Shown here piece after piece: positions 5,093 to 22,290 of a stretch of DNA of 22,290 bases (position 1 is its first letter; each line of letters begins with the position of its first letter). Both the position numbers and the translations under genes were made by a program. The notes beneath the pieces were generated by a model. That model was not told the origin of the DNA, did no database searches, and saw only the letters and a program-made list of their open reading frames with translations. This DNA comes from a virus. Taxonomy: Duplodnaviria > Heunggongvirae > Uroviricota > Caudoviricetes. Location of the stretch: the IMG/VR virus record IMGVR_UViG_2675903562_000009; one strand, 5' to 3'.

Positions 5093-5514
5093 AAATCAAG
5101 CATGAACACATCCGCATGGCGATGAATGCCTGGGCGCGTCCTGATGGCGAAAAAGTTCCAGCAGCTGGAATAACCCAGGCTTATTTTGAGTTGGGTATGA
5201 CGTTCCCAGAACTGTATGACGACAGCCATCCGGAAGCCCTGGCTCGTAATACCCAGAAAATTTTCCGCTGGGTAGAGAAAGACACCCCTGATGCAGTTGA
5301 AAAAATTCAGGCGTTGTTACCAGCGATCGAAAAGGCAATGCCACCTTTGCTGGTGGCCAGAATGCGCAGCCACAGTTCAGCTTATTTTCGGGAGCTGGTG
5401 GAGACGCGGGAACGACTGGTGAGAGACGCTGATGATTTTGTCGCAGTGGCGATCGCTGGTTTCAATCAGATGAATCGTGGTGGCCCGGCAGGAAATGCCT
5501 TGGTGATGCACTAA
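5089..5514 (+). CDS. YdaT-family protein (CII-like regulator, sometimes annotated as a toxin)
   Basis: 141-aa ORF overlapping the cro stop (ATGA), AAGGAAAG SD; the N-terminus MKIKHEHI matches what I recall of Rac YdaT; occupies the cII position. Confidence 0.65.
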   Translation: MKIKHEHIRMAMNAWARPDGEKVPAAGITQAYFELGMTFPELYDDSHPEALARNTQKIFRWVEKDTPDAVEKIQALLPAIEKAMPPLLVARMRSHSSAYFRELVETRERLVRDADDFVAVAIAGFNQMNRGGPAGNALVMH

Positions 5515-5537
5515 AAGCACGGTGTTCGGAGTTTTTT

Positions 5538-6485
5538 ATGAGCAGCAAGCTTCATGGTCTTGTCTGGGAAGGGTGTGCCTTCACCGGCATGATCTTATCC
5601 AGGGTGGCAGTTATGGCTCGCCTTGCAGATTACAGCAATGACGAAGGTGTGTCATGGCCTGCAGTGGAGACCATTCGTCGTCAGATTGGGGCAAAGAGTG
5701 AATCAACGGTTAAAGCTGCGATAGCAGAACTGGAAAAGAACGGCTGGCTGACGAAGGAGGAACGTAAGGTCGGTGGGCGTAATGAAAGCAATATCTACCG
5801 TCTTAATGTGGAAAAACTCGAAGCAGCAGCAGCGGCGGCGCGTGAGGCATATAAACCGAAAAGAAAAATTAGCCAGGCAAAAAATGACCCGTCAAATATT
5901 GCCCCCTCAACGGTTAACCCATCAAATTTTGATGGATCAACCGTTGATAAAAAACAGTCGGATAGGGGGGCGATGGTTGGCCCCGATCCGTCAGTATTAA
6001 AACCTGATCCGTCAGATAAAAGATCTTTTCGTCCGGAAGCTTCGCAACCGGACATGCAGACGGCTGAACAGGATTTTTTAACCCGACACCCTGACGCGGT
6101 TGTGTTCAGTGCGAAAAAACGCCAGTGGGGTAGCCAGGAAGATTTAGCGTGTGCGCAGTGGATCTGGGGGCGAATCGTGAGTCTTTACGAGCAGGCCGCC
6201 AGCGATGATGGCGAGATTTCGCGACCGAAAGAACCCAACTGGACCGCATGGGCCAACGACGTGCGCACAATGCGGATGCTGGATGGCAGAACTCACAGAC
6301 AAATTTGTGAAATGTTTGGTCGGGTGCAGCGGGATCCATTTTGGGTAAAAAATATCATGAGTCCGTCAAAGCTTCGCGAAAAATGGGATGAACTGGTTAT
6401 CCGCCTGGGGCGTTCGTCTGTACAGCGTTGTGTGAATCATATTTCTGAGCCGGATACCGAAATTCCGCCGGGATTCAGGGGGTGA
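5538..6485 (+). CDS. Replication initiation/organiser protein (O-like: winged-HTH N-terminus, DnaT-like C-terminus)
   Basis: 315-aa ORF with GGAG SD; positioned immediately upstream of the DnaC-like gene; its linker-coding region contains iteron-like direct repeats. Confidence 0.75.
   Translation: MSSKLHGLVWEGCAFTGMILSRVAVMARLADYSNDEGVSWPAVETIRRQIGAKSESTVKAAIAELEKNGWLTKEERKVGGRNESNIYRLNVEKLEAAAAAAREAYKPKRKISQAKNDPSNIAPSTVNPSNFDGSTVDKKQSDRGAMVGPDPSVLKPDPSDKRSFRPEASQPDMQTAEQDFLTRHPDAVVFSAKKRQWGSQEDLACAQWIWGRIVSLYEQAASDDGEISRPKEPNWTAWANDVRTMRMLDGRTHRQICEMFGRVQRDPFWVKNIMSPSKLREKWDELVIRLGRSSVQRCVNHISEPDTEIPPGFRG
5885..6020. repeat. Iteron-like direct repeats inside the replication-initiator gene (candidate origin)
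   Basis: CCGTCAAATATT (5888), CCATCAAATTTT (5918), GATCCGTCAGTATT (5985) and GATCCGTCAGATAA (6006), with the palindrome ATCAAATTTTGAT and AT-rich spacers; lambdoid origins characteristically lie inside the O gene. Confidence 0.5.
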
Positions 6486-6491
6486 CGTGTC

Positions 6492-7238
6492 ATGAAAAAC
6501 ATTGCGGCAGGTGGTGTTCTTGAGCGTATCCGTAAGCTGGCCCCACAGCATGTAATCGCGCCGTACCGGACAGTGGACGAGTGGCGCGAGTGGCAACTAG
6601 CAGAAGGGCGAAAACGTAGCGAGGAAATCAACCGCCAGAATCGCCAGTTGCGGGTGGAAAAAATCCTGAATCGTTCGGGCATCCAGCCTCTGCACAGCAA
6701 ATGCTCGTTTGCGAATTATCAGGTGCAGAATGACGGGCAAAAACACGCGCTGAGCCAGGCAAAATCCATCGCTGACGAACTGATGACCGGGTGCACGAAT
6801 TTTGTGTTCAGCGGTAAGCCGGGTACCGGAAAGAACCACCTTGCAGCCGCCATTGGTAATCATCTTCTGGCGAAAGGTCGCAGCGTGATTGTGATAACGG
6901 TGGCTGATGTGATGCTGGCGTTACACAACAGCTACGACAACAAAAACTCAGGCGAAAAATTTTTACAGGGGTTGTGTGATGTTGACCTGCTTGTCCTGGA
7001 TGAAATCGGAATGCAGCGGGATACGCGCAACGAGCAGGTCACGCTGAACCAGATAGTCGACCGCAGAACGGCTTCGATGCGCAGTGTCGGAATGCTGACA
7101 AACCTGAACCACGTAGCGATGAGTACGCTTCTTGGTGAGCGTGTAATGGACCGCATGGTCATGAACGGTGGTCGCTGGGTGAATTTTAACTGGGAGAGCT
7201 GGCGTTCGAATGTCAGGCACCTGAGGGTTGTGAAGTAA
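6492..7238 (+). CDS. DnaC-like helicase loader (AAA+ ATPase, IstB/DnaC family)
   Basis: 248 aa; Walker A FSGKPGTGKNHLAAAIG; strong end-to-end resemblance to E. coli DnaC as remembered (NRSGI.PLH..CSF.NY, LLVLDEIG, TNLN, LGERVMDRM). Confidence 0.9.
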   Translation: MKNIAAGGVLERIRKLAPQHVIAPYRTVDEWREWQLAEGRKRSEEINRQNRQLRVEKILNRSGIQPLHSKCSFANYQVQNDGQKHALSQAKSIADELMTGCTNFVFSGKPGTGKNHLAAAIGNHLLAKGRSVIVITVADVMLALHNSYDNKNSGEKFLQGLCDVDLLVLDEIGMQRDTRNEQVTLNQIVDRRTASMRSVGMLTNLNHVAMSTLLGERVMDRMVMNGGRWVNFNWESWRSNVRHLRVVK

Positions 7239-7259
7239 TTTTGTCCGGAGGAAATTTTA

Positions 7260-8021
7260 ATGGAAACCGTTTTTGACGCACTGAAAGCAATGGGAAAAGC
7301 CACATCCATAGAACTTGCTGCGCGACTTGATATCAGTCGTGAAGAAGTGCTGAACGAACTATGGGAACTGAAAAAGGCTGGTTTCGTTGATAAAAGCGCG
7401 TACACCTGGCGTGTGGCTGATAACAACGTTCAGCAGGAACAGCCAGCGCAGGCAGAACTGCCGGAAGAAACCTCCACGGCGACAGTAGCGAAAATCTCAG
7501 AGTGCGATTTAACCGCGACGATTGAACAACACGGACCACAAACGGCTGATGAGCTGGCTACATTGTTTGGTACCACATCACGCAAAGTGGCTTCAACGCT
7601 GGCAATGGCAATCAGCAAAGGACGCCTGATTCGTGCAAATCAGGACGGTAAATTTCGTTACTGCATGCCGGGCGATAATTTACCAGCAGAGCCGAAAGCA
7701 GCATCGGTAGCGGAAACTGATGGTAAAGCCTTTCCTCAGCCTGCATGTGTTGCGTTACCAGTACAGGAGGCTGCAACACAGGAAGATATTAAAACAGAAA
7801 CTGTGGCGGACATTGTGCAGTCGCTGCCATCGTTTACTGAAACGCGAGCGGATGACCTGGTTTTACCATCGCTGCATATGGCAAACCGCGAACTGCGTCG
7901 GGCGAAAAGTCATGCCCAGAAGTGGGAACGAGTCTGCGCCGCGCTGCGGGAGCTGAACAAGCACCGGGATATTGTTCGACATATTTTCGATTCCTCCAGT
8001 CATATTGTGTCGGAAAAGTGA
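7260..8021 (+). CDS. Hypothetical phage protein with two winged-helix-like segments
   Basis: 253-aa ORF with GGAGG SD; two HTH-like stretches ([28 protein letters not shown] and [30 protein letters not shown]). Confidence 0.65.
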
Positions 8022-8037
8022 TTCCTGGGGAGGGCTT

Positions 8038-8460
8038 ATGGCAAAAGTTTTTACACAAGAAGAGCGAGAAAAAATTAAAGGGCAGGTTGTTGAACTCGTA
8101 CGCCAGAGTGGGCGTGAGACGTTACGGCAACTGGAAGTCAAGACAGGTGCGACAAGATATCTGATGAGCGTTCTCGCAAGAGAGCTGGTTGCCAGCGGCG
8201 ATGTATACAACTCTGGTTACGGGTTATTCCCGTCTGAACAGGCGCGTAAGGACTGGCAAAATGCCCGTAAAAAACTATCAAGGGCAAAGGTGAAGAAACC
8301 GGTTGTGGTTGATCCTGACCTTATCTGGTCATTACCCGACGGAGAAATACGTCGTTACGACAGGCGTCTGAACATAATCTGTCGCGAGTGCCGGAAGAGT
8401 GAGGTTATGCAGCGAGTGCTGGCGTTTTATCAGGGTAATTTTCAGGAGGTGATGGCGTGA
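8038..8460 (+). CDS. Hypothetical phage protein (140 aa)
   Basis: Track ORF 7972..8460 trimmed to ATG 8038, which follows a GGGGAGGG SD. Confidence 0.6.
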   Translation: MAKVFTQEEREKIKGQVVELVRQSGRETLRQLEVKTGATRYLMSVLARELVASGDVYNSGYGLFPSEQARKDWQNARKKLSRAKVKKPVVVDPDLIWSLPDGEIRRYDRRLNIICRECRKSEVMQRVLAFYQGNFQEVMA

Positions 8461-11135: not shown

Positions 11136-12185
11136 GTGCGGGTATTACTTCGACCTGTTCCGGTACCGGAACTTGGGCTGGTGGTGCTAAAACCGGGCCG
11201 TGAATCCATGCAGGTATTTCATAACCCTCGAGTTCTGGTGGAGCCGGAACCGAAAAGCATGCATGGTCTGCCGTCCGGAGTCGTTCCTGCTGTTCGCCAG
11301 CCGCTGGCGGAGGATAAATCATTACTGCCATTTTTCAGCGATGAGCGGGTGATTCGTGCTGCTGGTGGTGCTGGTGCATTGTCTGACTGGCTGTTACGCC
11401 ACGTTAAATCCTGCCAGTGGCCTCATGGTGACTATCATCACAGTGAAACCGTTATTCACCGTTATGGTACTGGCGCAATGGTGTTGTGCTGGTACTGCGA
11501 CAACCAGCTGCGTGACCAGACTTCTGAATCACTCGGGCAGCTTGCTCACCAAAACCTGTCAGCATGGATGATTGATGTCATCCGCCACGCAATGAATGGC
11601 ACGCAGGAGCGGGAATTATCGCTGGCTGAATTATCCTGGTGGGCGGTCTGCAATCAGGTGGCGGACGCGCTACCAGAGGCAGCATTACGTCGTTCTCTGG
11701 GGTTACGTGCGGAAAAAATTCGCTCAGTATACCGCGAGAGCGACATCGTGCCGGGAGAGCAGACCGCCACCAGCATGCTGAAGCAGCGCACAAAAAATCT
11801 TGCGCCGCTGCCTCACGCCCACCAGCAACAGAACCCACCACAGGAAAAGACGGTGGTCAGCATTGCCGTTGATCCTGAGTCTCCGGAATCTTTCATGAAA
11901 CGACCTAAACGTCGCCGCTGGGTTAACGAGAAATACACACGCTGGGTGAAGACACAGCCGTGTGCGTGTTGTGGTAAGCCAGCCGACGATCCCCATCACC
12001 TGATTGGTCATGGTCAGGGCGGAATGGGGACAAAATCTCACGATATTTTCACGCTACCGCTGTGTCGGGGGCATCACAACGAGCTTCATGCGGATCCGCT
12101 GGCGTTCGAAGAAAAGCATGGTTCTCAGGTTGATTTAATTTTTCGTTTTCTTGATCACGCCTTTGCAACTGGCGTGCTTGGGTAA
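11136..12185 (+). CDS. DUF968-family protein with HNH-like Cys/His-rich C-terminus
   Basis: GTG start 3 nt after a GGAGGT SD and directly after the upstream stop; C-terminus PCACCGKPADDPHHLIGHGQGG...LPLCRGHHNELH. Confidence 0.7.
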   Translation: MRVLLRPVPVPELGLVVLKPGRESMQVFHNPRVLVEPEPKSMHGLPSGVVPAVRQPLAEDKSLLPFFSDERVIRAAGGAGALSDWLLRHVKSCQWPHGDYHHSETVIHRYGTGAMVLCWYCDNQLRDQTSESLGQLAHQNLSAWMIDVIRHAMNGTQERELSLAELSWWAVCNQVADALPEAALRRSLGLRAEKIRSVYRESDIVPGEQTATSMLKQRTKNLAPLPHAHQQQNPPQEKTVVSIAVDPESPESFMKRPKRRRWVNEKYTRWVKTQPCACCGKPADDPHHLIGHGQGGMGTKSHDIFTLPLCRGHHNELHADPLAFEEKHGSQVDLIFRFLDHAFATGVLG

Positions 12186-12197
12186 AAGAGGTGACTG

Positions 12198-12557
12198 ATG
12201 CTCATAGATTTGGTTTTACCTTACCCGCCGACGGTGAACACTTACTGGCGACGCCGTGGCAGCACATATTTTATCTCGGAGGAGGGAAAGCGTTATCGCC
12301 GGGCTGTGGCGCTTATTGTTCGCCAGCAGCGGCTGAAATTAAACCTGTCCGGAAGGCTGGCGATAAAGGTGATTGCAGAGCCACCGGATAAACGTCGTCG
12401 TGACCTGGACAATATCCTGAAAGCACCACTGGATGCACTGACACATGCGGGGTTGCTTATCGACGACGAGCAGTTTGATGAAATTAATATTGTGCGCGGT
12501 CAGCTTGTTCCTGGTGGGCGGTTGGGGATAAAAATCACAGAACTGGAGTGCGCATGA
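12198..12557 (+). CDS. rusA: RusA-family Holliday junction resolvase
   Basis: 119 aa; LPYPPTVNTYWRRRG N-terminus and the RRRDLDN...LIDDEQ acidic motifs characteristic of RusA. Confidence 0.85.
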   Translation: MLIDLVLPYPPTVNTYWRRRGSTYFISEEGKRYRRAVALIVRQQRLKLNLSGRLAIKVIAEPPDKRRRDLDNILKAPLDALTHAGLLIDDEQFDEINIVRGQLVPGGRLGIKITELECA

Positions 12558-13243
12558 ATAACCAGTATTTACAGTTTGTTCGTGAGCAACTCATGATTGC
12601 CACCGCCGATTTGAGTGGATCAACAAAAGGGCAGCTTGAAGCCTGGCAGGAGAATGCCATGTTCGATACAGGGCGTTACAGGCGAAAAAAAATCCGGTAC
12701 CGCGATGAAGTGACTGGAAAAATGATAACGCGGGATAATCCACCAATCCCGGGAAAGCAATCGCTGGCGAAAGGTTCATCAATTGCCCTGGTCAGTCCGG
12801 TTGAGTTTTCGACATCATCATGGCGACGCGCCGTTCTGTCTCTTGAAGAGCATCAGAAGGCGTGGGTGCTGTGGGTATACAGTGAAAATCCGAGTTGGGA
12901 TTATCAGGTGGTCATTGCGAAATGGGCGTGGGATAAGTTTCAGGTGCATTTTGGCACCAGAAAAATTACAGGGAAAACGCTTGAGCGTCTGAAGAAATTA
13001 ATCTGGCTGGCGGCGCAGGATGTCAGGGGGAGGATTACTGGGCGTGACGTCTACCAGCGACAGGAACTTGCCAGACTGTGTGGAGTTAAGCCTGACAACT
13101 GGAGCCATAATTATGCGAACTACTGGCGTGAGATGTGCGACATTTTTAAGAAACTCGATACAGAATCCTTGATTTGCACCGTGAAAATGAGATCGCAACA
13201 AAAAGCGACCTTTTCACGACGAGATATTGCAAAAGTCAATTAA
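12554..13243 (+). CDS. Candidate late-gene antiterminator (Q-like), assigned by position
   Basis: 229-aa ORF (ATG overlapping the rusA stop, GGAG SD); last gene of the nin-like region, immediately followed by a promoter-like element and a strong terminator, as for lambda Q/pR'/tR' and Qin ydfU-quuQ. No motif-level confirmation. Confidence 0.5.
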   Translation: MNNQYLQFVREQLMIATADLSGSTKGQLEAWQENAMFDTGRYRRKKIRYRDEVTGKMITRDNPPIPGKQSLAKGSSIALVSPVEFSTSSWRRAVLSLEEHQKAWVLWVYSENPSWDYQVVIAKWAWDKFQVHFGTRKITGKTLERLKKLIWLAAQDVRGRITGRDVYQRQELARLCGVKPDNWSHNYANYWREMCDIFKKLDTESLICTVKMRSQQKATFSRRDIAKVN

Positions 13244-13255
13244 ATCGCATACATT
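13227..13255 (+). promoter_or_regulatory. Candidate late promoter (pR'-like)
   Basis: TTGCAA (13227-13232), 17 bp, TACATT (13250-13255); would give a roughly 50-nt transcript ending at the terminator at 13291-13315. Confidence 0.3.
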
Positions 13256-13290
13256 TTATGTAAATGTGATATTTTGCCGTATAGTGTGTA

Positions 13291-13315
13291 AACCCGCTTA
13301 AATGCGGGTTTTTTG
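13291..13315 (+). terminator. Rho-independent terminator (tR'-like)
   Basis: AACCCGC-TTAAAT-GCGGGTT followed by TTTTTT. Confidence 0.75.
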
Positions 13316-13387
13316 CTTAACTCTGTGGACCTTTTTATCTGTAGTTGTAAGATATGGATATTCTTACAATTTAGGTCGGTGAGCTTA

Positions 13388-14152
13388 ATGGAAGAACAGC
13401 ACGGTAATTACTTTATAAAACGAATTCAGTTGATTGGAAGGGGTGCATTTGGCTTTGTTGAACACGTTAAGGTTTACAACCTCAACAAGGGTGAATGTGG
13501 GGATTATGCTAGAAAGGTTTTAGCCCCCGAAAAACCAGAGCTTTTGGCGCAAATAGAGCAGTTTAGAAGGCGTTTTAAAAGGGAGGTCGTGTATCAATCA
13601 CATTGCGTACATAGCAATATTGTTCCTATTTATTTGTGCGATTTGTTTGCCGAGAATCCATGGTTCATTATGGATAAAGCAGAATGTGATCTTGAGCACG
13701 AAATAACGAACAACCTTCTTACAACAGATCAAAAAATTTCAATAGTGAAAATGGTATTAGATGGTGTAGCTCACATCCATGCGAAAGGCTATTTACACAG
13801 AGATATAAAACCATTTAATGTCTTGCGATTTAGCGACGGAACATACAAGGTGTCTGATTTTGGTCTGGTAAAAGATACAAATCCCGAAGGGGATACCACT
13901 AAATTGACCGAGATCGGTACCCGTATGGGAAGTACAAGATATATGGCTCCCGAGATTTTATATAATGCCGAGTATTCAGTTAAGACTGATGTTTATGCGG
14001 TGGGGCGGTTAATTGAGGACTTAAATTTAGATGATAAAAAAATAAAGCCTATCATAGCGAAGTGTACCAGGATGGATAAAGATGATAGATATCAGACAAT
14101 AGATGATGTGGCGTTTGATTTTGTGCATTCTTTTTTAAGGAGTGAGTCATGA
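13388..14152 (+). CDS. Hanks-type (eukaryotic-like) Ser/Thr protein kinase
   Basis: 254 aa from ATG 13388. Gly-rich loop GRGAFGFV, lysine in YARKVL, catalytic loop HRDIKPFNVL, DFG (VSDFGLV) and APE (YMAPEIL) motifs all present; region is visibly AT-rich relative to neighbours (not computed). Confidence 0.85.
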   Translation: MEEQHGNYFIKRIQLIGRGAFGFVEHVKVYNLNKGECGDYARKVLAPEKPELLAQIEQFRRRFKREVVYQSHCVHSNIVPIYLCDLFAENPWFIMDKAECDLEHEITNNLLTTDQKISIVKMVLDGVAHIHAKGYLHRDIKPFNVLRFSDGTYKVSDFGLVKDTNPEGDTTKLTEIGTRMGSTRYMAPEILYNAEYSVKTDVYAVGRLIEDLNLDDKKIKPIIAKCTRMDKDDRYQTIDDVAFDFVHSFLRSES

Positions 14153-14892
14153 TTCAGCTGATAGCGACTTCATCATTCTCGTATCCAAAAGAACCAGGTA
14201 GGGTCAACGAAGATTCATTGCTTCCTCCCAAAATTGTAGGGGATGGCATCTTATTTGCCGTAGCTGATGGTGTAGGTTCATACACTGGTGCCAGTCAGGC
14301 TTCATCAATGGCAATTGCTGAACTTTCAGCATTGACAAGCTTATCTTTTGACACAGTTCCGGATGTATTTGATGAAGTTAAGCGAAAGGTTATGTCGTTA
14401 GCTGATGTTAATGATGAGTTCGATAAAGCTGCTACTACACTTACGTTTTGTTATGTTTGTGATAGCGGAATTATTATTGGTCATATTGGTGATTGTCGTT
14501 TGTATTGCATTGGAGAGAAGAAAGCATACCAATTGACGAAGGACGATACCAGGCATCAGATGCTAATTGATCAGAATATTTTTAAACCCAGAGATTTGAA
14601 GGATAAACCGGGCAAAAATATCTTAACGACGGCTATAGCCTCAAATGTTGATATGGAATACGACTGTGATTTTATCACATGGAAAGATTTACCTAGTATT
14701 AACGGGGTATATCATCTGTGTATCATGTCTGATGGGGTTCATAACGTTTGGGAAAAACGCCCCAGATTTACATCAAATACGATGAGTAATAGTCAGAAGT
14801 TTTCTAATGGCATTTTGCGTCGTATAGAGAGAGCCGGACCTGATGATGACTTTTCTTTAGTAAGTATAATGGTGCGTGTGACGTCAGATTAG
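14149..14892 (+). CDS. PP2C-family Ser/Thr protein phosphatase
   Basis: 247 aa; start overlaps the kinase stop (ATGA) with AAGGAG SD; metal-binding motifs VNEDS, AVADGVGS, GDCR and MSDGV typical of bacterial PP2C phosphatases. Confidence 0.85.
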   Translation: MIQLIATSSFSYPKEPGRVNEDSLLPPKIVGDGILFAVADGVGSYTGASQASSMAIAELSALTSLSFDTVPDVFDEVKRKVMSLADVNDEFDKAATTLTFCYVCDSGIIIGHIGDCRLYCIGEKKAYQLTKDDTRHQMLIDQNIFKPRDLKDKPGKNILTTAIASNVDMEYDCDFITWKDLPSINGVYHLCIMSDGVHNVWEKRPRFTSNTMSNSQKFSNGILRRIERAGPDDDFSLVSIMVRVTSD

Positions 14893-14967
14893 TTGTATAA
14901 ACTCAGTAGGGAATGCTAATTTCACATACAACATAGTTAAAGAAAACTTAATTTTAATGTAAAAAGG

Positions 14968-14996
14968 CTGCCCTCAGGCGGTCTTTTTATGCTCGA
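14968..14996 (+). terminator. Probable intrinsic terminator after the kinase-phosphatase operon
   Basis: Imperfect hairpin GGCTGCC-CTCA-GGCGGTC (one G-U pair, one mismatch) followed by TTTTTAT. Confidence 0.4.
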
Positions 14997-15110
14997 AAAT
15001 TGATGCAGTACGTTAAACGCGCTGGTGGTTGCGAATACCGGTCTTTCAGCTTGCTGGCTTTTTAGACAAGAGTTATTGGTATGTCACGTTAACCAGAAAA
15101 GGGAAAAAGA

Positions 15111-15309
15111 CATGCTAAAACAGCAGGATATGACCGAAACCGCCAGAGTGGTGTTTAATGAATTAAGCGTCACCGAACCGGCGACCGTCGGGGAAATTGC
15201 GCAGAATACTTACCTTTCACGCGAACGCTGCCAGTTAATCCTGACCCAGCTTGTTATGGCGGGTCTGGCAGATTATCAGTTCGGTTGTTACAGACGCCTT
15301 CTGCAGTGA
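15111..15309 (+). CDS. Small putative winged-helix DNA-binding protein (66 aa)
   Basis: Track ORF 15025..15309 trimmed to ATG 15111 (MLKQQDMTETARVVFNELSVTEPATVGEIAQNTYLSRERCQLILTQLVMAGLADY); lies upstream of the methyltransferase. Confidence 0.55.
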
Positions 15310-15459
15310 AGGCTTTTTAATTTGTGGTAATGGGCGGCTGGTGGGTGTTAGCGGCACCTGCCAGCCATCTGCTCATGCGTTGGGGTCACAAGCAAACCTC
15401 AGGCCCATCTGCTTTGCGCAAAAGCAGTATGAGCCTATCAGAGAAGTGCTTATTGATCT

Positions 15460-16509
15460 ATGACTAATACTGTAAAAATATCCAGTTGTGAGTTAATCAA
15501 CGCTGATTGCCTGAAATTTATCCAGACCTTACCGGAAAACTCTGTCGATCTGATAGTCACAGACCCGCCATACTTTAAAGTGAAGCCCGAGGGCTGGGAT
15601 AACCAGTGGGAGGGCGACGATGATTACCTGAAATGGCTGGACCAGTGTCTGGCGCAGTTCTGGCGGGTACTGAAGCCTGCCGGAAGTCTTTACCTGTTCT
15701 GTGGTCATCGCCTGGCATCTGACACCGAAATCATGATGCGTGAGCGCTTTAATGTGCTGAACCACATTATCTGGGCGAAGCCGTCCGGACGCTGGAACGG
15801 GTGCAATAAGGAAAGTCTGCGGGCGTATTTTCCGGCAACAGAGCGCATTCTGTTTGCAGAACATTATCAGGGACCGTATCGCCCGAAAGATGATGGCTAT
15901 GTGGCACAGGGGCGCGAGCTAAAACAGCACGTCATGGCCCCGCTGATTTCTTACTTTCGTGATGCGCGTAAATCACTGGGAATAACGTCAAAACAGATAG
16001 CGGAAGCCACCGGAAAGAAAAACATGGCTTCGCACTGGTTTGGTACCAGTCAGTGGCAGTTACCGAACGAGGGTGATTACAACAAATTGCAGGCGTTGTT
16101 TGCGCGTGTTGCGGCAGAAAAACATCAGCGCGGGGAACTGGAAAAGCCACACCACCAGCTGGTCAGCACATACAGTGAGCTGAACCGGCAGTACACGGAA
16201 CTGCTGAGTGAATATAAAAATTTGCGGCGGTATTTCGGTGTGACGGCGCAGGTTCCGTACACCGATGTCTGGACGCATAAACCGGTGCAGTACTATCCAG
16301 GAAAACATCCGTGCGAAAAACCGGCAGAAATGCTGCAGCAGATAATCAACGCGAGCAGTCGTCCGGGAGACCTGGTTGCAGATTTTTTTATGGGTTCAGG
16401 TTCAACGGTAAAAGCGGCGATGGCACTGGGGCGTTGTGCGATTGGTGTTGAGCTGGAGACAGGACGTTTTGAACAGACAGTCAGGGAAGTTCAGGATTTA
16501 ATCGTTTGA
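15460..16509 (+). CDS. Orphan DNA methyltransferase (N6-adenine/N4-cytosine class, beta-type motif order)
   Basis: 349 aa; motif IV DPPY (VTDPPYF) near the N-terminus and motif I FFMGSGST near the C-terminus; overall architecture like YhdJ-type enzymes. No restriction endonuclease gene is adjacent. Confidence 0.9.
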   Translation: MTNTVKISSCELINADCLKFIQTLPENSVDLIVTDPPYFKVKPEGWDNQWEGDDDYLKWLDQCLAQFWRVLKPAGSLYLFCGHRLASDTEIMMRERFNVLNHIIWAKPSGRWNGCNKESLRAYFPATERILFAEHYQGPYRPKDDGYVAQGRELKQHVMAPLISYFRDARKSLGITSKQIAEATGKKNMASHWFGTSQWQLPNEGDYNKLQALFARVAAEKHQRGELEKPHHQLVSTYSELNRQYTELLSEYKNLRRYFGVTAQVPYTDVWTHKPVQYYPGKHPCEKPAEMLQQIINASSRPGDLVADFFMGSGSTVKAAMALGRCAIGVELETGRFEQTVREVQDLIV

Positions 16510-16558
16510 AACGGATGAGATTGCAGAATTAATTACGCACCATTATTATTCTGCTCCC

Positions 16559-16634
16559 GGCCCTTTAGCTCAGTGGTGAGAGCGAGCGACTCATAATCGC
16601 CAGGTCGCTGGTTCAAATCCAGCAAGGGCCACCA
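16559..16634 (+). tRNA. tRNA with CAU anticodon; closely resembles E. coli tRNA-Ile2 (ileX-type, lysidine-dependent), Met not excluded
   Basis: 76 nt with perfect 7-bp acceptor stem (GGCCCTT/AAGGGCC), D-arm GCTCAGTGGTGAGAGC, anticodon loop CTCATAA, T-loop TTCAAAT and encoded CCA. Confidence 0.85.
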
Positions 16635-16635
16635 A

Positions 16636-16712
16636 CCGTCACCAGTTCATCAGGAAAGAGCGTCAACCCTTTAAGTTGAGTGTGCGAGGTTCGAGTCCTC
16701 GGTGGCGGGCCA
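16636..16712 (+). tRNA. Non-canonical tRNA-like gene (anticodon loop CCTTTAA, nominal UUU) or tRNA pseudogene
   Basis: Acceptor stem CCGTCAC/GTGGCGG (one G-U), T-arm CGAGG-TTCGAGT-CCTCG and encoded CCA, but C at positions 8 and 33 and an atypical D-arm. Begins 1 nt after the preceding tRNA. Confidence 0.45.
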
Positions 16713-16714
16713 GT

Positions 16715-16790
<76 letters not shown>

Positions 16791-16793
16791 TAT

Positions 16794-16868
<75 letters not shown>

Positions 16869-17142
16869 GCATTTGAAATAAGCCTTATTGTATTGCAGCA
16901 CTGGCGTATTTTTTATTACGTGGGAGCAGGTTGTTTTAAGAGACATTCTGTTCTCTGGCTATGATTTGAGGCCAGGTTAGCCTCAGTGCTGATTTTTTTT
17001 ACGACAGCAGAATGGTGCATTATCGGTGGAGATTTTGTATTTCCTGGCAGGGTCGGTAATGCATCATTCTGATGTTGTAAGCATCGCTCAGAATAACGTT
17101 GAGATTAATCGCGTACTAAGCAAAACTTGGAAATACATCCTT

Positions 17143-17168
17143 AACCGCCGCACCAGGCGGTTTTTTTT
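17143..17168 (+). terminator. Rho-independent terminator
   Basis: AACCGCC-GCACCA-GGCGGTT followed by eight T. Confidence 0.75.
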
Positions 17169-17183
17169 ATTCATTTTTTTCAT

Positions 17184-17206
17184 GGCTCGCTACGGCGGGC
17201 CTTTTT
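17184..17206 (+). terminator. Rho-independent terminator (second of a stack)
   Basis: GGCTCGC-TACG-GCGGGCC followed by TTTTT. Confidence 0.55.
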
Positions 17207-17292
17207 CATATCCTCGCCACACCCGGCGCATATCACATCAAATAACGCCGCGCAAAAGGCATCTGCGGGCGCCTTTGACGGGGTGTTTTTAC

Positions 17293-17314
17293 GGGCCGCT
17301 GGTGGCCCTTTTTT
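17293..17314 (+). terminator. Rho-independent terminator (third of a stack), 20 nt upstream of the next start codon
   Basis: GGGCC-GCTGGT-GGCCC followed by TTTTTT. Confidence 0.65.
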
Positions 17315-17333
17315 ATTTACAGGAGAAAAACGT

Positions 17334-18746
17334 ATGTCTGAACCCTTATCTGGTTCCGGCACGGCTGCGGCGCTCGGTGGGGCGACGGTATTCGGGCTGT
17401 TTACCGGAACGGATTTCGGGATTGTGTTTGGTGCGTTCGCCGGGGCGTTATTTGTGGCAACGATGCCGCAGGCGCTTTCAATCTGGCGTGTGGTGGCGCA
17501 TTTTTTGGTGTCGTTTATCGTCGGCGTGCTGGGGGCGCGCGTGCTGTCAGCCTGGATTGCATCAAAAACAGGGTATGACGGTACATCGGCAGATGCGCTG
17601 TGTGCGGTGCTGGTATCGGTGGTGTCGGTGAAGATTGCGGATATCAGGCAGGTTGAAACCACAGCACGCTATCTTGGCACGGCGCTGTACTGGATAGCCG
17701 CCAGTATCAATATCAGGCCGGGCCATAATTATTATTTTTACGTTCGCAGTGTGAACACCGTTGGCAAATCGGCATTCGTGGAGGCTGTTGGTCAGCCGAG
17801 TGATGACGCATCCGGCTATCTGGATTTTTTCAAAGGCGAGATAGGGAAAACCCATCTGGCTCAGGAGCTGTGGACGCAGATTGATAACGGTCAGCTTGCG
17901 CCTGACCTGGCTGAAATCAGGACATCCATTACGGATGTCAGCAATGAAATCACACAGACCGTCAATAAGAAACTGGAAGACCAGAGTGCAGCGATCCAGC
18001 AGATACAGAAGGTTCAGGTTGATACAAATAATAACCTGAACAGCATGTGGGCTGTGAAGCTGCAGCAGATGCAGGACGGACGCCTTTATATCGCGGGTAT
18101 CGGTGCCGGTATTGAGAATACGCCAGCAGGCATGCAGAGTCAGGTGCTGCTGGCGGCAGACAGGATTGCGATGATTAATCCTGCGAATGGCAACACAAAG
18201 CCGATGTTTGTTGGTCAGGGCGATCAGATATTCATGAACGAAGTGTTCCTGAAATATCTGACGGCTCCCACCATTACCAGCGGCGGTAATCCTCCGGCAT
18301 TTTCCCTGACACCGGACGGAAAGCTGACCGCTAAAAATGCGGATATCAGTGGCAGTGTGAATGCGAACTCCGGGACGCTCAACAACGTCACGATTAACGA
18401 GAACTGCCGGGTTCTGGGAAAACTGTCCGCGAACCAGATTGAAGGCGATCTCGTTAAAACAGTGGGCAAAGCTTTCCCCCGGGACTCCCGTGCACCGGAG
18501 CGGTGGCCATCAGGGACCATTACCGTCAGGGTTTATGACGATCAGCCGTTTGACCGGCAAATTGTTATTCCGGCGGTGGCATTCAGTGGCGCTAAGCATG
18601 AGAGAGAGCATACTGATATTTACTCCTCATGCCGTCTGATAGTGCGGAAAAACGGTGCTGAAATTTATAACCGTACCGCGCTGGATAATACGCTGATTTA
18701 CAGTGGCGTTCCCGCCGTCACATGCCGGGACCATCACCGTGTATGA
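17334..18746 (+). CDS. Chimeric ORF: about 100-aa hydrophobic N-terminus joined to a C-terminal fragment resembling tail-tip host-specificity protein J; likely a deletion remnant
   Basis: ATG 17334 with AGGAGA SD. First ~100 aa contain three hydrophobic stretches. From about [42 protein letters not shown] onward the sequence parallels the C-terminal third of lambda J as remembered ([42 protein letters not shown]). Confidence 0.6.
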
Positions 18747-21480
18747 AGATTCCCGACCCGGTACGCTGAATGATTTTCTCGGTGCCATGACGGAGGATGA
18801 TGCCCGTCCGGAGGCACTGCGCCGTTTTGAACTGATGGTGGAAGAGGTGGCGCGTAACGCGTCCGCAGTGGCACAGAACACGGCAGCCGCGAAGAAGTCA
18901 GCCAGTGATGCCAGCACATCAGCCCGTGAGGCGGCAACCCATGCGACTGATGCTGCAGGCTCAGCACGCGCAGCCAGCACGTCAGCCGGACAGGCCGCGT
19001 CGTCGGCTCAGTCAGCGTCTTCCAGCGCAGGAACGGCATCGACAAAGGCCAGTGAAGCAGCGAAAAGTGCTGCTGCTGCAGAGTCATCAAAAAGCGCGGC
19101 AGCTACCAGCGCCAGTGCCGCGAAAACGTCAGAAACGAATGCCGCAGCATCACAAAAATCGGCAGCCACTTCTGCATCCACAGCGACCACGAAGGCGTCA
19201 GAAGCTGCCACCTCGGCACGGGGGGCGGCGGCCTCAAAAGAGGCAGCGAAATCATCAGAAACGAATGCATCATCAAGTGCCAGTAGTGCAGCTTCCTCGG
19301 CAACGGCGGCAGGAAATTCCGCGAAGGCGGCAAAGACGTCTGAGACAAACGCTAAGTCTTCTGAAACGGCAGCAGCACAGAGTGCCTCAGCTGCGGCAGG
19401 TTCAAAAACAGCGGCTGCATCGTCGGCCAGTGCCGCGTCAACAAGTGCCGGGCAGGCCTCAGCCAGTGCCACCGCCGCCGGAAAATCGGCAGAAAGCGCC
19501 GCATCATCCGCTTCAACAGCCACAACGAAGGCTGGCGAAGCCACTAAGCAAGCCACTGCAGCAGCGAGGTCTGCTTCTGCAGCAAAAACCTCTGAAACAA
19601 ATGCAAAGACTTCAGCAGACAATGCTGCTTCCTCTAAGGCGGCAGCCGCATCGTCCGCTGGTTCAGCGGCGTCATCGGCATCATCTGCGTCTGCTTCAAA
19701 AGATGAGGCGACCAGACAAGCGTCAGCAGCGAAAGGTAGTGCCACGACAGCAACAACGAAAGCATCAGAGGCGGCAGGCAGTGCGACGGCTGCATCTCAG
19801 AGCAAAGTTGCTGCTGAATCCGCGGCAACGCGTGCCGAAACAGCAGCAAAACGGGCAGAGGATATTGCTGATGCCGTATCTCTGGAAGATGCGAGCACGA
19901 CGAAAAAAGGTGTGGTTCAGCTCAGCAGTGCGACCAACAGCACTTCCGAGTCACTGGCGGCAACACCAAAGGCAGTAAAGGCAGCATATGACCTTGCTAA
20001 CGCAAAATATACCGCTCAGGATGCAACGACGGCACGAAAAGGGATAGTTCAGCTCAGTAGCGCCACTAACAGCCCGTCTGAAACGCTGGCTGCGACACCA
20101 AAAGCGGTTAAGGCGGTAATGGATGAAACGAACAAGAAAGCGCCTTTAAACAGTCCTGCGCTGACCGGAACGCCAACAACGCCAACTGCGCCAAAAGGGA
20201 CTAATAATACTCAGATCGCAAGCACGGCTTATGTGATGGCCGCGATTGCCGCACTTGTAGACTCGTCGCCTGACGCACTGAATACGCTGAACGAGCTGGC
20301 GGCGGCGCTGGGAAACGACCCGAATTTTGCGACCACCATGACTAACGCGCTTGCGGGTAAGCAACCGAAAGATGCCACCCTGACGGCGCTGGCCGGGCTT
20401 GCTACTGCGGCAGACAGGTTTCCGTATTTTACGGGGAATGATGTCGCCAGCCTGGCAACCCTGACAAAAGTCGGGCGGGATATTCTTGCGAAATCGACCG
20501 TTGCCGCTGTTATCGAATACCTCGGTTTACAGGAAACGGTAAGTCAGGCTTCTGGCGCATTACAGAAAAACCAGAACGGCGCAGATATTCCAGGAAAAGA
20601 TACCTTCACCAAAAATATTGGTGCCTGCCGCGCATATAGCTCATGGCTGAATATTGGTGGCGATAGTCAGGTCTGGACAACCGCGCAATTTATTTCGTGG
20701 CTGGAGAGTCAGGGGGCATTTAACCATCCTTACTGGATGTGCAAAGGCTCATGGGCTTATGCAAATAATAAGGTCATTACAGATACAGGTTGCGGAAATA
20801 TTTGTCTTGCAGGTGCTGTGGTGGAAGTTATTGGCACTCGCGGCGCAATGACCATACGCGTTACTACGCCGAGCACGTCCAGCGGTGGCGGAATTACTAA
20901 CGCTCAATTCACTTATATTAATCATGGTGATGCTTACGCTCCTGGCTGGCGACGAGACTACAACACGAAAAACCAGCAGCCTGCATTTGCTTTAGGGCAA
21001 ACAGGACGCAGGGTCGCAAATGATAAAGCTGTTGGCTGGAACTGGAATAGCGGTGTTTATGATGCAGATATCAGTGGTGCATCGACATTAATCCTCCACT
21101 TCAATATGAATGCGGGGAGTTGCCCTGCTGTACAGTTCCGCGTGAATTACAGGAACGGCGGTATTTTTTATCGTTCAGCGCGTGATGGTTATGGCTTTGA
21201 AGCTAACTGGTCAGAGTTTTACACCACAACACGCAAACCCTCTGCGGGGGATGTTGGTGCATATACGCAGGCAGAATGTAACTCAAGGTTTATTACAGGT
21301 ATTCGCCTTGGCGGTCTGTCATCTGTTCAGACATGGAAAGGCCCCGGCTGGTCTGACAGGTCAGGTTATGTCGTTACGGGTTCAGTTAACGGAAACCGTG
21401 ATGAATTAATTGATACAACTCAGGCAAGGCCAATTCAGTATTGCATTAATGGGACGTGGTATAACGCGGGGAGTATTTAA
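18703..21480 (+). CDS. stf: Side tail fibre protein (Stf/StfR-like), lacking the usual N-terminal about 55 aa
   Basis: 925-aa ORF. Begins at a GTG with no SD, exactly at the conserved [15 protein letters not shown] motif; long Ala/Ser-rich repeat region; duplicated KKG(V/I)[21 protein letters not shown] module; C-terminal domain with YRNGG(I/L)FYRS(A/S)RDGYGFE. Opposite-strand and alternate-frame ORFs here are artefacts. Confidence 0.85.
18880..19900 (+). repeat. Coding low-complexity tandem repeats (Ala/Ser/Thr-rich fibre shaft)
   Basis: Recurring DNA units such as GCGAAAACGTCAGAAACGAATGC / GCAAAGACGTCTGAGACAAACGC encoding AKTSETNA-type motifs. Confidence 0.7.
20511..20536. other. gix/pix/cix-like crossover site for a Gin/Pin-family DNA invertase, inside stf
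   Basis: TTATCGAATACCTCGGTTTACAGGAA differs at about 2 positions from the Mu gix sequence as remembered (TTATCCAAAACCTCGGTTTACAGGAA); it lies in the codons for [10 protein letters not shown], the conserved constant/variable boundary of invertible tail-fibre genes. Confidence 0.7.
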
Positions 21481-21482
21481 CG

Positions 21483-22016
21483 ATGATGCACTTAAAAAAC
21501 ATTACTGCTGGCAACCCTAAAACAAAAGAGCAATACCAGCTAACAAAGCAATTTAACATCAAATGGCTTTATTCAGATGATGGAAAAAACTGGTATGAGG
21601 AACAAAAGAATTTCCAGCCAGACACTTTGAAAATGGTCTATGACCATAACGGCGTTATTATTTGTATTGAAAAGGATGTTTCAGCAATTAATCCAGAGGG
21701 TGCAAGCGTCGTTGAATTACCTGATATTACAGCAAATCGCCGGGCTGATATTTCGGGGAAATGGATGTTCAAAGATGGCGTAGTGATAAAGCGAACTTAT
21801 ACCGAGGAAGAGCAGAGGCAACAAGCGGAAAATGAAAAGCAAAGCCTGTTGCAACTTGTCAGGGATAAAACCCAGCTATGGGACTCACAGCTACGGCTGG
21901 GCATCATTTCCGACGAGAATAAACAAAAATTAACCGAGTGGATGCTCTATGCGCAGAAAGTCGAATCTACAGACACCTCCAGCCTGCCAGTAACATTTCC
22001 AGAACAACCAGCATGA
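21483..22016 (+). CDS. tfa: Tail fibre assembly protein (Tfa family)
   Basis: 177 aa immediately after stf (GGGGAG SD); C-terminal pattern EEQRQQAE...L.EW..Y...V...DTSS.P..FPEQP typical of Tfa chaperones. Confidence 0.8.
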   Translation: MMHLKNITAGNPKTKEQYQLTKQFNIKWLYSDDGKNWYEEQKNFQPDTLKMVYDHNGVIICIEKDVSAINPEGASVVELPDITANRRADISGKWMFKDGVVIKRTYTEEEQRQQAENEKQSLLQLVRDKTQLWDSQLRLGIISDENKQKLTEWMLYAQKVESTDTSSLPVTFPEQPA

Positions 22017-22021
22017 AACAA

Positions 22022-22046
22022 GGCCCGATAGCGGGCCTTAATTTTT
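22022..22046. terminator. Hairpin between convergent tfa genes (probable bidirectional terminator)
   Basis: GGCCCG-ATAG-CGGGCC followed by TTAATTTTTATT on the plus strand and by a short T-containing tract on the minus strand. Confidence 0.5.
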
Positions 22047-22290
22047 ATTCAGGCTTTTGTGGCCATTCAGGATTTGCCGTATCCACACGGCTGACCAGAA
22101 CACTGTAGCGTCCCCATGCTTCCAGTCGTGTGCGTTCCTCGTCTGTTGCCATATTCAGCCTGACAGCGCGTTCCAGCGGCCGAATAACGCTTTCTGCTTC
22201 GGAAAGTAACGCGGCCTTTTGTGATTCGGCCTGTTGTTGCTGTTCGTCAGCCGTATAAATCCGTTTAACGACTGCGTCGTCCTTAAACAT
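22045..22290 (-). CDS. Inverted second tfa-like gene, 5' part beyond window end (alternate tail-fibre cassette)
   Basis: Minus-strand ORF whose product ([21 protein letters not shown]...[26 protein letters not shown]) parallels the C-terminal half of the plus-strand Tfa; the ATG at the window edge corresponds to an internal Met of the plus-strand Tfa, so the gene probably extends past 22290. Confidence 0.7.

Follow-up and report, generated by a model that had tools for sequence, protein, structure and literature searches.

Tail-fibre switches that work by inversion have long been known, among them the G segment of phage Mu, the C segment of P1 and the P segment of e14, as has the grafting of such cassettes onto unrelated fibre genes at their crossover sites. 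In cryptic prophages of E. coli, decayed copies are common. In an intact cassette, a serine invertase of the Gin/Pin family works together with Fis on an enhancer located at the 5' end of the invertase gene. Both 26-bp sites are cut at the central TC dinucleotide, and the strands are rotated and rejoined, whereby Sv'-U' is exchanged for Sv-U. Gin and Hin require that the two sites and the enhancer share a supercoiled domain and adopt a defined topology; events over long distances or between direct repeats are strongly disfavoured. By analogy with this established enzymology, the type of cassette considered here would be expected to follow the Gin/Hin pathway. The invertasome is described elsewhere (PMC3798978). 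In e14, deletion of either inverted repeat locks the P segment, and the segment is inverted in trans by PinQ (PMC12529663).

A cassette of this type is found at the right end of the DNA analysed here, a viral sequence of 22,290 nucleotides (IMG/VR record IMGVR_UViG_2675903562_000009), hereafter called the window. The cassette belongs to a defective lambdoid prophage integrated in ompW of E. coli. The relevant features are as follows.

17334-18746, + strand: holin::J fusion ORF of 470 aa, a deletion scar; Pfam Phage_holin_8 at residues 1-102, then Ig_J_second, Phage_Tail_Tip and Ig_GpJ_C
18703-21480, + strand: stf, a 5'-truncated lambdoid side tail fibre gene; longest ORF 925 aa from GTG, constant part to 20509
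18705-18710, no strand: J::stf deletion junction, out of frame, at about codon 65 of stf; the end of J, lom and the start of stf are removed
20510-20535, + strand: orphan gix-type crossover site, TTATCGAATACC-TC-GGTTTACAGGAA; it lies in the stf reading frame where the constant part meets the variable part
20536-21480, + strand: variable fibre C-terminus, homologue of Mu S' (Sv', the G(-) form); 308 of 324 residues as in Mu Sv'
21483-22016, + strand: tfa, tail fibre assembly chaperone, homologue of Mu U'; Pfam Caudo_TAP, E 8e-37
22020-22039, no strand: hairpin terminator between the convergent chaperone genes; 8-bp stem with 6 G-C pairs, then AATTTTTATT
22045-22290, - strand: 3' remnant of an inverted tfa (Mu U); Pfam Caudo_TAP profile positions 44-131

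The cassette and its crossover site

A first-pass annotation of the window had described a gix/pix-like site in stf, followed by a variable C-terminus, tfa, a hairpin and an inverted tfa, and had traced this architecture to segments of the Mu G and P1 C type. All of these features are present, and the ancestry is borne out by the DNA. The region from 20510 to 22290, together with the next 35 nt read from other contigs, is genuine G-segment DNA: it aligns with the Mu G segment at 94.2% identity over 1816 ungapped nt that end inside U, and with the G segment of D108 at 96% DNA identity. The Sv'-U'-U DNA is also shared with the C segments of P1 (Cin; 90% identical) and P7 (96%). In these the homology begins after the site, at about window 20552-20557, because the cix sites differ, and the window copy has neither the invertase nor the partner site. 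Identities of 94-96% to Mu/D108 and 90-96% to P1/P7 show descent from a characterised invertible segment.

The variable C-terminus, when residues are counted from the site, ends at the same stop position as Mu Sv', and the matching region is annotated as S' in both Mu and D108. Tfa is identical to Mu U' at 173 of 178 positions. The 47-nt stretch around the hairpin (22010-22056) folds at -16.9 kcal/mol (z = -3.4), and the 20-mer of the hairpin is identical in Mu and annotated as a terminator in D108. Thus the window shares with Mu and D108 the G(-) order Sv'-U'-terminator-U, the stops, the hairpin and the TC core. On the other hand, it holds only the left 1816 of the ~3084 bp of the Mu G segment; missing are gixR, Sv, codons 1-82 of U, and gin with its enhancer, and the constant part is a lambdoid Stf, whereas that of Mu is Sc. 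What is left of U corresponds to residues 83-175 of the Mu protein (93 codons; 88 of 94 positions as in the C-terminus of Mu U) and is labelled 'incomplete; missing N-terminus' by PGAP. Instead of two opposed sets of fibre C-terminus and chaperone, there is one full set (Sv'-U') and this remnant of U, with no Sv.

The site itself had been placed at 20511; it is real, and its start lies one base further to the left. The 26-mer TTATCGAATACCTCGGTTTACAGGAA is present once in the window (20510-20535, + strand), and no further copy with up to 3 mismatches was found there (0.00 expected in shuffled sequences). It matches gixL/gixR of Mu (TTATCCAAAACCTCGGTTTACAGGAA) at 24 of 26 bases. The two mismatches fall within the outer half-site; the inner half-site and the TC dinucleotide at the crossover point are unchanged from Mu. 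The stf reading frame runs through the site, which marks the constant/variable boundary, and the TC core is kept. Mu/D108 homology starts exactly at base 1 of the site, and upstream of it no Mu homology was found except for a short match to fibre repeats.

The right end of the cassette

Segments of the Gin/Pin/Cin type are bounded by two inverted sites of ~26 bp. Only one site is present here: a search with the core consensus AAACCNNGGTTT revealed no partner in the window, and a scan of the window and, in identical contigs, of the following 10 kb revealed none even when 7 mismatches were tolerated. At this setting a single site was obtained in the window, L001, L004 and L006-L011, and both sites were recovered in the controls (Mu, L002 and L014-L017).

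Since the window itself ends at 22290, the DNA beyond was read from longer contigs that are identical or near-identical to it. Window 11483-22290 (10.8 kb) recurs with 100% identity in L004 and L006, and two lineage-specific deletion scars fall within this stretch. In identical contigs the U remnant runs on for 35 nt, to the equivalent of window position 22325, where Mu homology stops. Beyond it, L004 and L006 have AT-rich DNA of the phage right arm (~0.5 kb), the 3' remnant of ompW (attR) and yciE-yciF-yciG-trpA. The complete genomes of E1739 and E1316 have the same downstream layout, the junction is present in all three complete genomes (the third being LR883050), and yciE-trp lies downstream in all displayed contigs with an identical Tfa. 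When the DNA after the joint was compared with a phage collection, only short matches of 54-62 nt were obtained, to the intergenic right arm of lambdoid and Stx phages. These short matches do not explain the deletion mechanism.

The first-pass annotation had taken the segment to be live, with the partner site, the alternative Stf C-terminus and the invertase just past 22290. The layout up to this position is exactly like the left part of Mu G, complete versions do occur in other lambdoid prophages (L002, L014-L017), and the window end resembles an assembly break. A 12.2-kb IMG/VR contig (L019, 99.8% identical) terminates at the same base, and this shared end suggests an assembly break in a repeat. 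However, the identical 10.8-kb contigs pass directly into attR/ompW without site, Sv or invertase, and the three complete genomes agree with the truncated right end. None of the three predicted elements appears where it was expected: the partner site is absent from L004, L006 and the three complete genomes; there is no Sv, U being cut after 93 codons with ompW ~0.5 kb further on; and tblastn with Mu Gin detected no homologue in the window or the 10 kb downstream. The same search found no match in L001 and L003-L011, and it recovered the invertase remnants of the controls L002 and L014-L017. No recombinase is annotated between tfa and ompW. The DNA homologous to the Fis-dependent enhancer (the invertase 5' end) is absent in cis, as judged from sequence alone, so that a cryptic enhancer elsewhere is possible. 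A live segment is therefore extremely improbable.

The region is very probably a truncated and locked remnant of a Mu G-type tail-fibre cassette that is unable to switch, a reading drawn from sequence comparison. Observed here are the homology and the point of truncation, the lack of a partner site and an invertase, the order in which decay proceeded and, in an intact copy, the competence of the site variant. On this reading, the region is the left 1.8 kb of a ~3.1-kb cassette; the graft onto the lambdoid stf lies at the gix-type site, where the constant part of the gene continues in frame into the cassette. At a point 35 nt past the window, the first 82 codons of U, all of Sv, the right site, the enhancer and the invertase gene were then probably lost through deletion or illegitimate recombination. 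With these lost, the cassette would be locked without switching, and it would have been left in the Sv'/U' orientation, which is like G(-) of Mu. Subsequent deletions in the lineage of the window took out lysis, head and tail genes along with the first ~65 codons of stf, leaving the fibre gene as a probable pseudogene in a cryptic ompW prophage.

Decay of the host prophage

The prophage lacks lysis, head and tail genes as well as the 5' end of stf. The holin::J fusion marks it as defective, with lysis, head and most tail genes gone; window 17633-18710 aligns with the 3' part of gpJ in L002 and L010. By blastn, window 17633-18710 corresponds to L002 2256-3333 and window 18709-22290 to L002 4410-7991; therefore L002 3334-4409 is missing from the window. 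Intact stf encodes 989 aa in L010, L001 and L002. In the window only profile positions 67-134 of the 134 of Pfam phage_tail_N (PF08400) are covered, at residues 3-70. Phage_fiber_2 repeats in Stf and the downstream Caudo_TAP chaperone were both found by Pfam, and the middle part of Stf is Ala/Ser-rich, with no tandem array detected by Tandem Repeats Finder in 18700-22290. By its sequence, the gene is a member of the lambdoid Stf family truncated by a 5' deletion.

The order of events is indicated by L010 (CP024266). Its tail genes are intact and its stf, of 989 aa, is 100% identical to the window, yet its right end shows the same truncation; therefore the truncation of the cassette preceded the decay of the structural genes. 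By the refuting test that the first-pass annotation had set, this copy is not a live switch. In addition, stf is 5'-truncated, and the prophage retains no virion genes for a change of host range.

Both the 925-aa ORF and tfa are intact reading frames with 100% conservation in several variants that carry independent deletions (L004, L006, L008, L010, L011). This might indicate that the locked Stf fragment and Tfa are kept because the host gains from them, for instance if they made a receptor inaccessible to other phages. StfE2 of e14 is a precedent, as it has been reported to block a receptor in this way (PMC12529663). However, the ORF has neither its native start nor the N-terminal domain, and other variants are deleted deep into stf, L005 keeping only window 21048 onwards and L009 only 20247 onwards; therefore stf is dispensable. 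We regard such an exaptation as very unlikely.

The intact copy at potB

A second prophage, situated at potB in ETEC (L002, L016, L017), carries a complete lambdoid Stf::G-type cassette with the same variant left site. It is 99.1% identical to the ompW copy over window 18709-22325, and it has in addition a partner site (TTATCTAAAACCTCGGTTTACAGGAA), full-length U and Sv, all of which are absent from the window copy. It also retains an invertase remnant (Gin residues 1-99), whereas the window copy has none. Comparison of the sister ETEC strains E1433 and E1739 revealed a precise 3157-bp inversion at potB, bounded by the same 26-mer and the partner site, with flanks that are 100% identical between the two strains. 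Both orientations are thus seen at the intact potB copy, whereas the cassette has the same orientation in every ompW locus read (L001, L004, L006-L011). The variant site therefore works when given a partner.

Because this prophage is present in the same genomes with an stf-tfa 99.1% identical to that of the window, the ompW cassette may never have been invertible at its present location, the ompW prophage having gained a partial cassette, made up of the 3' part of stf, tfa and a U fragment, by recombination with another prophage, such as the one at potB. Identity to the potB copy falls to ~91% over the last 134 nt of the U remnant, which points to a mosaic joint, and many lambdoid and Stx phages have the first 54 nt past the joint near their right ends. 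We consider partial acquisition possible but rather unlikely. As against deletion in place, it leads to the same present state: under either history the cassette is locked and has no partner.

The competence of the same 26-mer at potB also raises the question of whether the orphan site is still used, with a Pin-family invertase acting in trans to pair it with the potB gix sites ~140 kb away. Such pairing would produce a large chromosomal inversion or an exchange of cassettes between the prophages. The cis invertase at potB is only a remnant in both orientations, gin/pin homologues are present in 3613 of 5426 complete E. coli genomes, and the action of PinQ on e14 provides a precedent (PMC12529663). 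On the other hand, in E1316 and LR883050, where the strand of each of the two prophages was read, they have the same relative orientation with no inversion, and E1739 is consistent with this. Moreover, E1739 lacks e14/pinE at icd, and the topology of the Gin/Hin invertasome (PMC3798978) disfavours long-range events. Use of the orphan site with potB, whether as a programmed inversion or as a cassette exchange, is accordingly very improbable, as much so as the receptor-blocking role of Stf.

The locked remnant in ompW is an ordinary fossil of an already known system. The e14 P segment is likewise a tail-fibre cassette of a cryptic prophage with its crossover site inside stf genes, but it is complete (1797 bp), with two repeats of other site sequences and an adjacent pinE, whereas the window has one site and no invertase. 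The biological weight of the window copy is small and its practical value lies in annotation: a gix-like site and an inverted tfa are insufficient to call a live switch, which also calls for proof of a partner site and of an invertase, whether the latter acts in cis or in trans.

The flipping of the potB site in the sister ETEC strains may be the more interesting observation. The cis invertase there is a remnant in both orientations, yet the segment flipped precisely, which implies action in trans or an earlier event. Pin recombinases have recently been reported to act in trans on fibre cassettes of cryptic prophages, and a flip next to a truncated cis invertase agrees with this.

The cassette and its crossover site

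The right end of the window carries every feature that the first-pass annotation had described: a crossover site, the stf (side tail fibre) C-terminus, the chaperone gene tfa, a hairpin and an inverted tfa-like gene.

Features of the cassette
20510-20535, plus strand: 26-bp site, TTATCGAATACCTCGGTTTACAGGAA
up to 21480, plus strand: stf open reading frame, in frame through the 26-bp site
21483-22016, plus strand: tfa, 177 aa (Pfam Caudo_TAP, E 8e-37)
22020-22039: G+C-rich 8-bp hairpin with a T-run; the surrounding 47 nt folds at -16.9 kcal/mol (z = -3.4)
22045-22290, minus strand: Caudo_TAP fragment covering profile positions 44-131 (Pfam)

The site, which starts one base to the left of the position first proposed, is translated within the stf frame. 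It is present in a single copy; a second copy with three or fewer mismatches was not found in the window, where none is expected by chance. Mu gixL and gixR are both TTATCCAAAACC-TC-GGTTTACAGGAA, and the window site differs from them at two positions, both in the outer half-site, with no change in the TC core or inner half-site. Directly outside the site (20490-20509) lies GAAATCGACCGTT, encoding K-S-T-V. The gin-proximal flank of Mu (1665-1680 in the Mu locus used here) is AAAATCGACCATT, which reads K-S-T-I in the matching frame. Judged from these few codons, the Mu flank may derive from a former fibre constant region, although so short a match could be due to chance.

BLAST against phage records revealed 96.0% (D108) and 94.1% (Mu) identity to window 20510-22290, a range that in both phages takes in the G-segment features annotated as S' (Sv'), U' and U. 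Homology to Mu and D108 sets in with base 1 of the site, whereas the matches of P7 (96.3%) and P1 (90.1%) begin only after it, at ~20552-20557. Extending the window with the continuation of an identical contig and aligning it directly to Mu gave an ungapped alignment of 1816 nt at 94.2% identity, from base 1 of the site to window-equivalent 22325; upstream of the site, no Mu homology was found beyond one short fibre-repeat match. At the protein level, Sv' matches its Mu counterpart at 308 of 324 positions, U' at 173 of 178, and the inverted fragment matches Mu U at 88 of 94, spanning only U residues 83-175. Together, the DNA and protein matches identify the region, on sequence grounds, as G-segment DNA in the G(-) arrangement (Sv'-U'-terminator-U), joined in frame to the constant part of a lambdoid Stf. 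The ancestry proposed in the first-pass annotation is borne out by this 94-96% DNA identity.

Sequence beyond the window end

The last base of the window is also the terminal base of an independent IMG/VR contig (position 1 of L019; 12,228 bp, 99.8% identical). This suggests an assembly break, both contigs being fragments broken inside a tfa repeat common to a second prophage at potB, and the downstream sequence was therefore inferred from identical longer assemblies. Two contigs, of 78 kb (L004) and 4.75 Mb (L006), are 100% identical to window 11483-22290, a stretch that includes the two lineage-specific deletion scars of the window. In the 4.75-Mb contig the U fragment stops 35 nt past the final base of the window, followed by ~0.5 kb of AT-rich DNA, an ompW 3' remnant and yciE; the complete genomes of E1739 and E1316 have the same layout. 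In the PGAP annotation, the U fragment is a tail fibre assembly protein 'missing N-terminus'. Of 5426 complete genomes, only three (E1739, E1316 and LR883050) contain the truncation junction.

The exact Tfa protein was found in many E. coli contigs; in all eight places listed with it, yciE-yciF-yciG-trpA-trpB lies downstream, and none of the eight carries a recombinase. A gix scan allowing up to seven mismatches detected a single site each in the window and in every ompW-prophage locus, and recovered the pair of sites in Mu and in each of four complete lambdoid cassettes used as controls. A tblastn search with Mu Gin gave no match in the window or downstream loci, and recovered invertase remnants in controls. 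The partner site, alternative Stf C-terminus and invertase predicted just past 22290 are therefore absent from these assemblies, and a live switch with its remainder beyond the window is contradicted alike by the identical contigs, the three complete genomes, the site scan and the Gin search. Thus, the reading of the cassette as a Mu G / P1 C / e14 P-type switch holds for its descent from the G segment and not for its present function.

The final 134 nt of U are more divergent (~91% identity to the potB copy), hinting at a mosaic joint, as would be left if the ompW prophage had gained a partial cassette rather than been truncated in place. Such a gain is not separable from deletion, and both yield the same present state. 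The right arm of the 4.75-Mb contig (L006 11150-11200) contains an 18-19-nt duplication, aatgtatagaattcaaaca, that the right arm of E1739 lacks (compared at 8340-8375 of the ompW-prophage locus L001).

Locked state and the complete potB cassette

Gin or Hin dimers occupy a pair of inverted sites and form a complex with Fis on an enhancer, and the DNA is cleaved at the central dinucleotide, rotated and religated (PMC3575834, PMC3798978). By analogy with these enzymes, inversion of an intact cassette would exchange the fibre tip plus its chaperone. The window cassette is locked, because it has a single site and lacks the enhancer and invertase in cis. In experiments, the e14 P segment was locked once either of its repeats was deleted (PMC12529663).

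The stf-tfa region of the potB prophage matches window 18709-22325 at 99.1% identity. The potB cassette shares the left 26-mer, Sv' and U' but, unlike that of the window, is complete: U is full-length, and Sv, a partner site (TTATCTAAAACCTCGGTTTACAGGAA) and the remnant of an invertase are also present. Between the sister ETEC strains E1433 and E1739 this cassette is inverted precisely, over the 3157 bp between the two sites (5201-8357 in both loci), with 100% identical flanks. Since the adjoining invertase is only a remnant in both strains (64-aa ORF; Gin residues 1-99 by tblastn), it is probable that an enzyme acting in trans catalysed the inversion, or else that the inversion is older than the truncation of the invertase. 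Stf stays in frame across the inverted junction assembled in silico, and the 5426 complete genomes include 358 with the constant-part+Sv junction and 126 with the constant-part+Sv' junction. Because a segment with the same left 26-mer has inverted, the two substitutions in the site are no bar to recombination; the deficit of the window is an absent partner, not a poor site.

It is conceivable that the orphan site is used in trans together with the potB sites: Pin homologues are present in 3613 of the 5426 genomes, and PinQ works in trans on e14 (PMC12529663). However, in E1316 and LR883050 the two prophages have the same orientation relative to each other, E1739 is consistent with this, and e14 is absent from E1739. 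The window copy is a locked, truncated cassette of a well-known system in a decaying prophage, and as a type of system it is not novel.

Decay of the ompW prophage

The window represents a lambdoid prophage inserted in ompW. In its relatives the gene order is int, xis, exo, dicB, cI/cro, replication genes, hokD, Q, a kinase/phosphatase pair, a methyltransferase and tRNAs. The late region of the window is cut down to three pieces: a holin::J fusion, an out-of-frame junction and a 5'-shortened stf, whose N-terminal domain is missing its first half (the PF08400 match begins only at profile position 67 of 134).

Joints in the late region
17334-18746: holin::J fusion ORF, holin N-terminus plus the C-terminal part of the tail-tip protein J
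18705-18710: out-of-frame junction of the J fragment to stf at ~codon 65

The two joints are nested deletion scars, with the lysis, head and tail genes removed. Four relatives (L005, L008, L009 and L011) have differing deletions and a shared right end. CP024266 retains the tape measure protein, J and lom, together with a 989-aa stf that shows 100% identity to the window, yet its right end is already cut at the same point; truncation of the cassette therefore preceded the decay of the virion genes. A putative exaptation of the Stf fragment is made less likely by relatives with deletions reaching deep into stf, which is retained only from window 21048 in L005 and from 20247 in L009.

Downstream of the Q antiterminator gene, a eukaryotic-type Ser/Thr kinase (Pkinase) gene and a PP2C phosphatase gene (13313-14892) resemble the stk-type genes of Stx and lambdoid prophages. 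They are followed by a DNA methyltransferase gene (15460-16509) and a tRNA cluster (16559-16868), in which ARAGORN predicts four genes (CAT anticodon, Lys-TTT twice and Gly-TCC). Relatives have three in their PGAP annotation (Ile, Lys and Gly), with Thr replacing Lys in E24377A, and the surplus Lys-like call (16636-16712) may be a pseudo-tRNA. The middle of Stf (18900-19850) is a long low-complexity stretch rich in Ala, Ser and Thr, in which Tandem Repeats Finder detected no regular repeat array. Near-identical relatives differ mostly upstream of 20300; E1739 is 97.7% identical to the window over 18705-22290 and 99.5% over 20300-22290.
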